A program made the translations under genes and the position numbers. A DNA stretch of 64,000 nucleotides, taken from contig CAWKAR010000023.1 in the NCBI GenBank assembly GCA_963847625.1, positions 1 to 64,000 on the forward strand, given 5' to 3'. This DNA comes from a candidate division FCPU426 bacterium (lineage in GTDB: Bacteria > Oederibacteriota > Muellerivitia > Muellerivitales > Muellerivitaceae). The notes below the pieces were generated by a model. It saw nothing but the letters and a program-made list of their open reading frames with translations. It was not told the origin of the DNA and made no database searches. Positions 42,650 to 43,100 of the stretch are shown piece after piece. Every line of letters starts with the position of its first letter. Position 1 is the stretch's first letter.

Positions 42650-42811
42650 ATGACCAAAGGTCGGAAAAAACTCCCCGATAATATAAAGAAGGCAAAACGC
42701 CTTTATTTGCGGTTAAATGAGGAAACTAAAGCGAAATATGAGCAAGCGGCTCAAAAGGCGGGAATAGGCCTATCTGAATGGATTAGAAAGACGCTTGACA
42801 AAAATTCTTGA
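42650..42811 (+). CDS. Small ribbon-helix-helix DNA-binding protein
   Basis: GRKK, beta strand RLYLRL, then helix-helix EQAAQKAGIGLSEWIRKTL. Confidence 0.75.
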   Translation: MTKGRKKLPDNIKKAKRLYLRLNEETKAKYEQAAQKAGIGLSEWIRKTLDKNS

Positions 42812-42823
42812 CAAGTATATTCT
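42795..42823 (+). promoter_or_regulatory. Sigma70 promoter TTGACA-N17-TATTCT pointing antisense into the tRNA-like genes
   Basis: -35 at 42795-42800, -10 at 42818-42823, palindrome TGTGCGCACA at the predicted start site. Confidence 0.6.
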
Positions 42824-42837
42824 GTGCGCACAAGAAA

Positions 42838-42935
42838 TGGCGGAGGACGACGGCATCGAATCCGAATCGTGTCTCTAGCACGATGTACCCAGGATGTACA
42901 GCCTGAGCCCACAGCCTCTCTGTGGTTCATCCTCC
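42838..42935 (-). tRNA. Irregular tRNA-Sec/allo-tRNA-like gene (8-bp acceptor, 8-nt anticodon loop CUGUACAU, long variable arm, GCCA end)
   Basis: GGAGGATG/CGTCCTCC-GCCA; D stem CCACAG/CTGTGG; anticodon stem CTCAGG/CCTGGG; variable stem ATCGTG/CACGAT; T arm CGG ATTCGATG CCG. Confidence 0.75.
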
Positions 42936-42950
42936 GAGTTTATCAAGGTA

Positions 42951-43054
42951 GTAGGGGTGGGGAGCTTTAAAACTCCCCTTGCGAGCCACCGCAATTTTGT
43001 TTCCCGTATTCAACCCACGGGACGAACCGAGTTTGGACCTCGGCCAACCCCCAC
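42951..43054 (-). ncRNA. Second, more divergent tRNA-like cloverleaf (no encoded CCA)
   Basis: GTGGGGGT/ACCCCTAC closing stem enclosing CCGAG/CTCGG, TCCCGT/ACGGGA, TTGCG/CGCAA and GGGGAG/CTCCCC arms in class II tRNA order. Confidence 0.6.
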
Positions 43055-43064
43055 AAGTACATTA

Positions 43065-43100
43065 AGCGGAATGTGTTTACGCACATTCCGCTTTTTTATT
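43065..43100 (+). terminator. Intrinsic terminator, plus-strand oriented
   Basis: GCGGAATGTG TTTACG CACATTCCGC TTTTTT. Confidence 0.8.

Follow-up and report, generated by a model that had tools for sequence, protein, structure and literature searches.

IS1-family elements that carry passenger genes are known from the ISMhu11 subgroup, and mobile elements regulated by cis-antisense RNAs are represented by IS10 RNA-OUT and hok/sok, where a promoter and a terminator on the opposite strand cover the target RNA. The RNAs SdsR and RyeA also overlap on opposite strands, and frameshift-type suppressor tRNAs include SufB2 and the hopR tRNA-Val. Three further groups are close to the locus described here. 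In type VIII toxin-antitoxin systems such as SdsR and CreTA an RNA effector, with translation as its likely target, is held in check by an RNA inhibitor (available text of PMC12737573 and PMC8501985). The allo-tRNAs of the 8/4 and 9/3 kinds (Mukai et al., PMC5389517) are described in the available parts of that paper as having a 9/3-split 12-bp branch of acceptor plus T stem, a long D stem with a tetraloop, a long variable arm and G73 or U73, as lying near toxin-antitoxin genes and a transposon-related ORF and as occurring in polycistrons of irregular tRNAs. According to the same text E. coli is killed by allo-tRNAs that have a leucine anticodon and are charged with serine, six allo-tRNA(UAU) variants showed no activity in translation, and only some members are charged and used on the ribosome. 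Membership of allo-tRNAs in toxin-antitoxin or transposon modules was suspected in 2017, without a partner being named. The third group is that of the +1 frameshift suppressors such as SufJ, in which an insertion 5' of the anticodon gives an 8-nt loop, +1 frameshifting and four-base decoding with a free fourth position (available text of PMC4238358).

Our analysis concerns a window of 64,000 nucleotides from a candidate division FCPU426 bacterium and describes a conserved and apparently undescribed RNA module of IS1-type transposons, the function of which we infer from comparison of sequences. The open-access literature searched, which included the available part of the review PMC7609411, contains no description of a module joining a tRNA mimic to an antisense unit.

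The locus is cargo of a transposon. Inverted-repeat search, GC profile and blastn of the genome delimit a low-GC IS1-type element of 3,566 bp at 40348-43913, found only once in the assembly. Its terminal inverted repeats of 15 bp lie at 40348-40362 (plus strand) and 43899-43913 (minus strand), flanked by an exactly matching 8-bp target-site duplication at 40340-40347 and 43914-43921; inverted repeats and duplications of 8-9 bp are features of the IS1 family. It contains an NYN-domain gene of 220 aa (40775-41437, plus; Pfam PF01936, 45.5 bits) for which phmmer found no match among related loci, a 96-aa core gene with neither an assigned function nor a Pfam family (41440-41730, minus), a single-ORF transposase of 279 aa (41718-42557, minus), a ribbon-helix-helix (RHH) gene, the RNA region and a 142-aa orphan gene. 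The transposase scores 24.0 bits against PF03400 (DDE_Tnp_IS1), 0.1 below the cut-off of 24.1, its homologues at 55% identity carry the name IS1 family transposase, and its promoter TTGACA-16-TACAAT (42593-42620, minus) matches the consensus at 11 of 12 positions. The single-ORF DDE transposase, short terminal inverted repeats, 8-bp duplication and variable cargo are shared with ISMhu11-like IS1 elements; the difference lies in a tRNA-mimic cargo with its own antisense unit.

Several other features were noted in and around the element. Just past its right end, 43922-43995 holds a degenerate copy of the left end (78% over 41 nt compared with 40373-40413), perhaps what is left of an earlier element whose end was entered by this one. 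A C-rich run followed by a G-rich run at 40485-40540 forms a hairpin upstream of the NYN gene, and elsewhere in the window group II intron domains RF00029, RF01998 and RF02001 lie at 16713-18469 on the minus strand. The same genome has a second IS1-type transposase, 41% identical (contig C27:140715-141545, locus L030), beside which neither covariance model (below) found a tRNA mimic. A DNA search of 61 relatives' genomes returned, besides the window itself, only a 33-bp match and a search of plasmids returned none.

The first-pass annotation of the window had proposed two tRNA-like genes on the minus strand, both covered by a dedicated antisense transcript. One of the two holds up as a tRNA mimic. 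At 42838-42935 the minus strand folds into the 9/3 allo-tRNA shape (MFE -42.9 kcal/mol against -37.2 for the plus strand, z -3.2, with covariation in long-arm relatives) with stems of 9 bp (acceptor), 6 bp (D), 7 bp (anticodon), 6 bp (variable) and 3 bp (T), a 5-nt D loop, an 8-nt anticodon loop CUGUACAU (42901-42894), an 8-nt T loop with UUCGA, G73 and CCA. It thus has the 9+3 bp acceptor branch, the variable stem and the G73 of allo-tRNAs. It differs from those listed in PMC5389517 in that its 6-bp D stem ends in a 5-nt loop and not a tetraloop and in having an 8-nt anticodon loop with an invariant UACA in place of a 7-nt loop with a listed anticodon; in the tables available from that paper CTCTACA and CTGTACA occur 0 times and TTTACA twice, both in the variable arm, and the word "antisense" is absent from its main text in the form available. 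The second structure (42951-43054, minus) has a closing stem and four hairpins and also folds better on the minus strand (MFE -52.4 against -41.1 kcal/mol, z -4.1), so that the strand preference proposed from G-U pairs applies to both. It has neither a T-loop consensus nor CCA, was matched by none of ARAGORN, Rfam and three models of our own and gave no match to the tRNA models or to a UCCAA motif, and we refer to it only as a structured RNA.

ARAGORN and Rfam, including RF00005 and RF01852 at gathering score, gave no match at the locus, and identity with selC was rejected (no tRNA-Sec lies above the cut-off anywhere in the genome). A leave-one-out profile built from sequence only on the nine other long-arm genes misses the window mimic (E 3.7; 51-65% identity), and its family membership therefore rests on shape, loop and position, its anticodon loop being identical to that of two relatives (L043 and L151).

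To place the locus among its relatives we collected loci by transposase similarity, three of them viral and 11 from a set of 99 genomes of the host phylum; of 302 loci in genome contigs and 462 in metagenomes the best 80 each were taken. Two covariance models made from nine long-arm (window included) and nine short-arm examples were run on 94 sources and then on 80 metagenome loci that had no part in model building; the match of the window to model R1 is by construction, as it was among the training examples. Duplicates (L022, L117, L120, L121), the second tRNA of L122 and matches lacking UACA, which were ordinary host tRNAs and a few odd second tRNAs, were dropped, giving 50 distinct tRNA-mimic loci (28 in the first set including the window, 22 in the second). 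All 51 genes have UACA in the anticodon loop on several scaffolds while the adjacent bases and the stems drift, the preceding base being U in 30, C in 17, G in three and A in one. As the covariance models favour UACA, we also ran a loop-blind cloverleaf search downstream of the RHH gene; on the opposite strand it matched 36 of 39 windows of tRNA-bearing loci compared with one of 77 others (this one not tRNA-like on inspection), and no other tRNA type was first in the slot.

The folded RNA of these loci is that of the minus, tRNA strand. Acceptor stems contain 46 G-U pairs against two A-C pairs, the tRNA strand is lower in energy at 42 of the 50 loci, and the long-arm forms have compensatory changes in 10 of 16 pairs, a count inflated by related sequences. 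Most relatives are short-arm 7/5 forms, in which they differ from allo-tRNAs; A73 is found in 35 of 36 short forms and G73 in seven of 10 long ones. RF00005 is passed by seven short-arm relatives among 16 loci scanned, and tRNA annotation either misses such genes or labels them with stop, Pyl or unknown anticodons. Transposases with the trait span Verrucomicrobiota, Acidobacteriota, Planctomycetota and the host phylum; on a transposase tree made by a quick method, with some trait-negative rows being truncated contigs, the trait occurs in 54 of 172 rows and needs 20 changes, 13 of them forced by well-supported branches. The 96-aa core gene accompanies 51 of 53 tRNA-bearing loci and 108 of 120 others. 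In viral contigs the allo-tRNA pattern matched 15 stretches, most of which are serine tRNAs of phages, ordinary or 8/4, and one of which, L017, is a member; two loop patterns matched 74, mostly ordinary tRNAs or noise, with L233 and L277 as members; L277 is the same contig and gene as L017, and both L233 and L277 adjoin the 96-aa gene of the element.

Some relatives carry additional RNAs. Second odd tRNAs were seen at L089:811-916, L044:1384-1459, L122:3485-3558 and L066:2957-3060 and comprise a UCC-loop body, which we take to be leucine-like, a GCU-loop body, presumably arginine-like, a tandem UACA copy and a form with two extra arms. Six relatives (L036:4785-4862, L046:4552-4628, L051:4561-4660, L115:700-777, L116:1921-1996, L118:330-429) have within the antisense unit a second structured RNA, a covarying motif with UUGGA loops that folds better on the antisense strand; it has no Rfam match, looser look-alikes are found in L040 and L043, and it is absent from the window.

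The antisense unit itself was proposed from a promoter and a terminator on the plus strand of the window. TTGACA (42795), a 17-nt spacer and TATTCT (42823) are present at 42795-42823, with the -35 box inside the L-D-K codons at the end of the RHH gene. Taken alone they carry no weight, as seven promoter-like sites occur in 41000-45000 against 7.3 in shuffles; for terminator-like sites the figures are nine and 4.6. The intrinsic terminator at 43064-43097 is firmer, with a hairpin (43064-43093) of -19.9 kcal/mol and z -8.6 and a T6 run (43092-43097) on the plus strand only. Between them would lie an antisense RNA of about 270 nt (predicted at 42829-43097, span 265-270 nt) containing, in agreement with the first-pass annotation, no credible ORF, as both plus-strand ORFs (79 codons at 42894-43133 and 13 codons at 42837) lack a Shine-Dalgarno motif and the longer one passes through the terminator. 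The RHH gene points into the unit with no terminator of its own before the tRNA, and the unit therefore also forms the tail of the RHH mRNA.

Its conservation carries the argument. At 32 of 50 loci (13 of 22 in the second set) a promoter is called on the opposite strand no more than 70 nt from the tRNA 3' end, compared with 5.6 (2.4) expected from dinucleotide shuffles and two of 50 for the other strand over the same interval. The promoter rule is lenient and was written after both sets were known, and at five loci (the window, L043, L044, L089 and L122) the search window was shifted past a second structured RNA. A hairpin with a U tail on the opposite strand within 130 nt past the tRNA 5' end is likewise found at 32 of 50 loci (13 of 22), also far more than in shuffles, whereas only six have a terminator on the tRNA strand; 23 loci have antisense promoter and terminator together, and each signal is without a callable example at 18. 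A test anchored on the RHH gene, which applies one and the same search interval to all loci, found the promoter at 20 of 35 RHH ends with a tRNA and at three of 74 without; within the architecture of the window the counts are 14 of 28 and two of 23 (p 0.002, kinship ignored), and a scored version agrees. Where no RHH gene was found the promoter is present in nine of 14 loci, two of these weak. Downstream of the RHH gene L185 and L190 keep antisense promoter, terminator and leader while a short perfect hairpin replaces the tRNA. A conserved antisense unit across the tRNA-mimic loci is thus well supported by comparison, and it is quite likely that the unit exists and acts on the mimic.

The RHH gene, which the earlier annotation lacked, encodes a repressor-like protein of 53 aa (42650-42811, plus; Pfam PF21983 NikA-like, 28 bits, cut-off 27) and is convergent on the tRNA mimic in the window and in 35 of 35 relatives in which an RHH gene was found. 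Two operator-like palindromes lie in the gap between the transposase and RHH genes (42595-42604, 42628-42637) and another, differing by one base from that in the transposase promoter (42595), covers the -10/+1 region of the antisense promoter (42823-42832). Such a palindrome occurs within 45 nt of the tRNA 3' end at 16 of 50 loci where 0.8 are expected. The RHH protein may bind these palindromes, which implies that the antisense RNA would be repressed when RHH is present. Sequence resembling the site at 42595 also occurs in the terminator hairpin (43072-43086, the operator-like core at 43072-43081), where the protein might bind too. The possibility that UACA is itself a DNA half-operator was rejected, as it stays TACA where the operator reads TACG.

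Transcription of the mimic plausibly comes by read-through from the upstream cargo gene. In the window this is the 142-aa gene (43096-43524, minus), possibly a coiled coil with a winged helix; the protein has no homologue, its match to a profile of the winged-helix genes in the same slot of relatives is weak (9.6 bits), its structure model is unreliable (pLDDT 40.6) and its Atlas matches are all under 0.9. Since the terminator hairpin has no U tail on the minus strand, and sense terminators are present at only six of 50 loci, read-through into the mimic is plausible, as the first-pass annotation had assumed. In most loci a tRNA-strand cargo gene ends 4-200 nt upstream of the tRNA and often encodes a coiled coil with winged helix, a DUF5343 or P63C protein or an ATPase; as this cargo differs among elements a fixed protein partner was rejected. 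Minus-strand promoter candidates in the window are a weak 8/12 match at 43582 and a 10/12 match inside the 142-aa gene at 43424, and a sense promoter within 130 nt can be called at 11 of 50 loci. Separately, the tRNA strand of 14 of 50 relatives (among them L071, L045, L147, L057, L032, L053, L119 and L178) has a mini-ORF led by a Shine-Dalgarno motif at 119-142 nt upstream of the tRNA, immediately beyond the antisense unit, with a GC hairpin after it. Four of these mini-ORFs start AGA-AGA and four have GTA as second codon, reminiscent of CreT; the window has none.

What the mimic does can be approached through its loop. A 7-nt register with C37 (UUA, CUA or GUA, with UACA at 35-38) pairs best in 20.7 of 51 genes, UAC in an 8-nt loop, the form of the window, in 16.3, UAC in a 9-nt loop in 13.3 and the canonical 7-nt valine register in 0.7, while ordinary phage tRNA-Val genes share the loop heptamer. 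Position 33 is frequently not U (C in 17, G in three and A in one of 51) and the anticodon stems are distorted. Different charging identities combined with one conserved loop suggest that it is decoding or recognition of UACA that is conserved. GUA is the most depleted codon in the transposases of tRNA-bearing elements (odds ratio 0.56, in frame only; 49 compared with 100 genes after dropping nine ambiguous negatives). This depletion may be a phylum effect, as it vanishes in close pairs (12 lower and 10 higher at 65% identity or above) and is small within one architecture (0.062 and 0.076).

The reading we favour, tentatively and at a little under even chances, is a mistranslating tRNA mimic as effector under convergent, RHH-regulated antisense control. 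The mimic would arise by read-through from the cargo gene, or from a weak promoter within or ahead of that gene, and host tRNA enzymes would mature it. The long-arm G73 form of the window would carry serine, and in its slipped loop of 8 nt the UAC anticodon would misread or frameshift at GUA valine codons and harm the cell when the mimic is abundant. Suppression would come from a plus-strand RNA, made from its own promoter and by transcription running on from RHH, either through colliding polymerases or through a duplex with the precursor that is cut by RNase III, which the host genome encodes. RHH would repress the transposase, itself and the antisense promoter, so that antisense transcription would peak in a cell that the element has just entered, or on derepression, and the mimic would be released once RHH is high or host transcription stops. 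Overall this would be a cis-antisense, type VIII-like RNA toxin-antitoxin switch, differing from the described type VIII systems in that the putative toxin is itself tRNA-shaped and the promoter of its inhibitor apparently stands under a protein repressor. It differs from CreTA, as outlined in the available text of PMC8501985, in that the window lacks a leader of Shine-Dalgarno, start codon, tandem rare codons and stem-loop. CreTA also has a CRISPR-repeat-like antitoxin and linkage to type I Cas, whereas the element has no CRISPR repeats or Cas and the window no CRISPR match in Rfam. From IS10 RNA-OUT and hok/sok it differs in that the target is a structured non-coding RNA and not an mRNA.

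In favour of the mistranslation reading are the conserved antisense signals and their link to the tRNA, the near absence of the canonical valine register, the killing of E. coli by serine-charged allo-tRNAs, the frameshifting by SufJ and the in-frame depletion of GUA codons. Some of the evidence counts against it. An antitoxin under the element's own repressor is backwards for simple addiction, and repression by RHH suits a regulated, establishment or copy-number switch better than a constitutive antitoxin or plain addiction. L185 and L190, with their signals but no tRNA, also weigh against it, and with an extra base in each of its D, anticodon and T loops the window mimic may never reach the ribosome. 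Further points on this side are the inactive allo-tRNA(UAU) variants, the frequent lack of U33 and the distorted anticodon stems, the loss of the GUA depletion in close pairs, the loci at which a promoter or a terminator cannot be called and the sequence profile that misses the window mimic. A bolder version, which we consider improbable, makes the mimic a four-base-decoding tRNA (GUA-N) that serves as the RNA toxin of widespread insertion sequences, held by a full-length cis-antisense RNA under a repressor and released in addiction, copy-number control or abortive infection. The described frameshift suppressors are laboratory mutants of host tRNAs, whereas this would be a natural, mobile and conserved family with putative activity.

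Since A73 is a valine identity base, its presence in the short forms also suits another possibility, that the mimic is a harmless decoy, a stable scaffold presenting single-stranded UACA to valyl-tRNA synthetase or to a sequence-specific ribonuclease such as an anticodon nuclease or an enzyme of the MazF/PemK type, with the antisense unit merely setting its level. We regard this as unlikely, though it accounts for a UACA that is invariant while the bases beside it and the stems drift, and with its antisense repressed by RHH the mimic would stay on in a settled element, which is what one expects of a useful product. A MazF strictly recognising UACA exists (available text of PMC5635168) and the host has four MazF/PemK genes. 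The loci share no nuclease partner, however, as the 96-aa gene occurs with and without the tRNA, NYN is found only in the window and the cargo varies, and a full-length antisense RNA is needless for a harmless RNA.

Another possible role of the tRNA shape is punctuation and insulation, in which host enzymes of RNase P/Z type would cut the cargo transcript and the convergent promoter with bound RHH would block read-through into the RHH and transposase genes. The mimic always closes the cargo unit on the side towards the backbone (35 of 35, and in L017 and L233) and in the window lies upstream of the transposase gene on its strand; few loci have a sense terminator, and L185 and L190 retain the signals without a tRNA. 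We rate this as less likely still, because processing signals need no invariant anticodon loop, at least seven loci have the RHH-tRNA pair downstream of the transposase and so beyond read-through activation, and in others (11 of the 50 loci) the mimic has a promoter of its own.

The register that pairs best in the largest share of genes, with U or C most often at the variable base, would make the mimic a nonsense suppressor with UUA or CUA as anticodon, C37 and a 7-nt loop; reading through UAA and UAG would be its harmful or anti-phage activity, the GUA version of the window being a drifted copy. Decoding tRNAs have as their norm no pyrimidine at position 37, and here all copies have one. G and A also occur at the variable position, the copy in the window would read tyrosine codons and the transposases do not avoid UAA or UAG as stops (16 of 49 compared with 28 of 109). 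Although 9/3 allo-tRNAs with an ochre anticodon are described in the available text of PMC5389517, we hold suppression to be quite improbable.

The first-pass annotation had also allowed the reverse arrangement, in which a small RNA from the plus strand does the work and the tRNA shape is secondary. Conserved promoter and terminator are indeed on the plus strand only and the UUGGA-loop motif of six relatives favours that strand (-22.9 against -15.9 kcal/mol, with an invariant U-G pair), but the tRNA part folds on the other strand, both structures of the window prefer the minus strand and the second motif is absent there, which makes the reverse arrangement very unlikely. That the promoter is a by-product of RHH codons, the hairpin the end of the RHH mRNA and the tRNA a decayed passenger can be set aside almost entirely, for although the regional promoter count is at chance, L-D-K codons spell TTGACA and three loops carry extra bases, the promoter is missing at the same RHH position without a tRNA and persists without RHH, covariation and the invariant UACA extend across phyla and the shuffle comparison and RHH-anchored test largely refute chance already.

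For the family as a whole the anatomy is fixed, consisting of cargo gene, terminator, UACA tRNA mimic, antisense promoter and RHH operator, and as it can be rebuilt in E. coli within a few hundred bases the question is directly testable. If the mimic is a decoy, it would point to a new UACA-reading protein that is manipulated by mobile elements. If the mimic mistranslates, tRNA would join the natural toxins and some fifty evolved slipped-loop scaffolds would be starting points for four-base codon engineering, and if four-base reading is true these elements would carry a class of toxin-antitoxin system whose toxin is a frame-corrupting tRNA.
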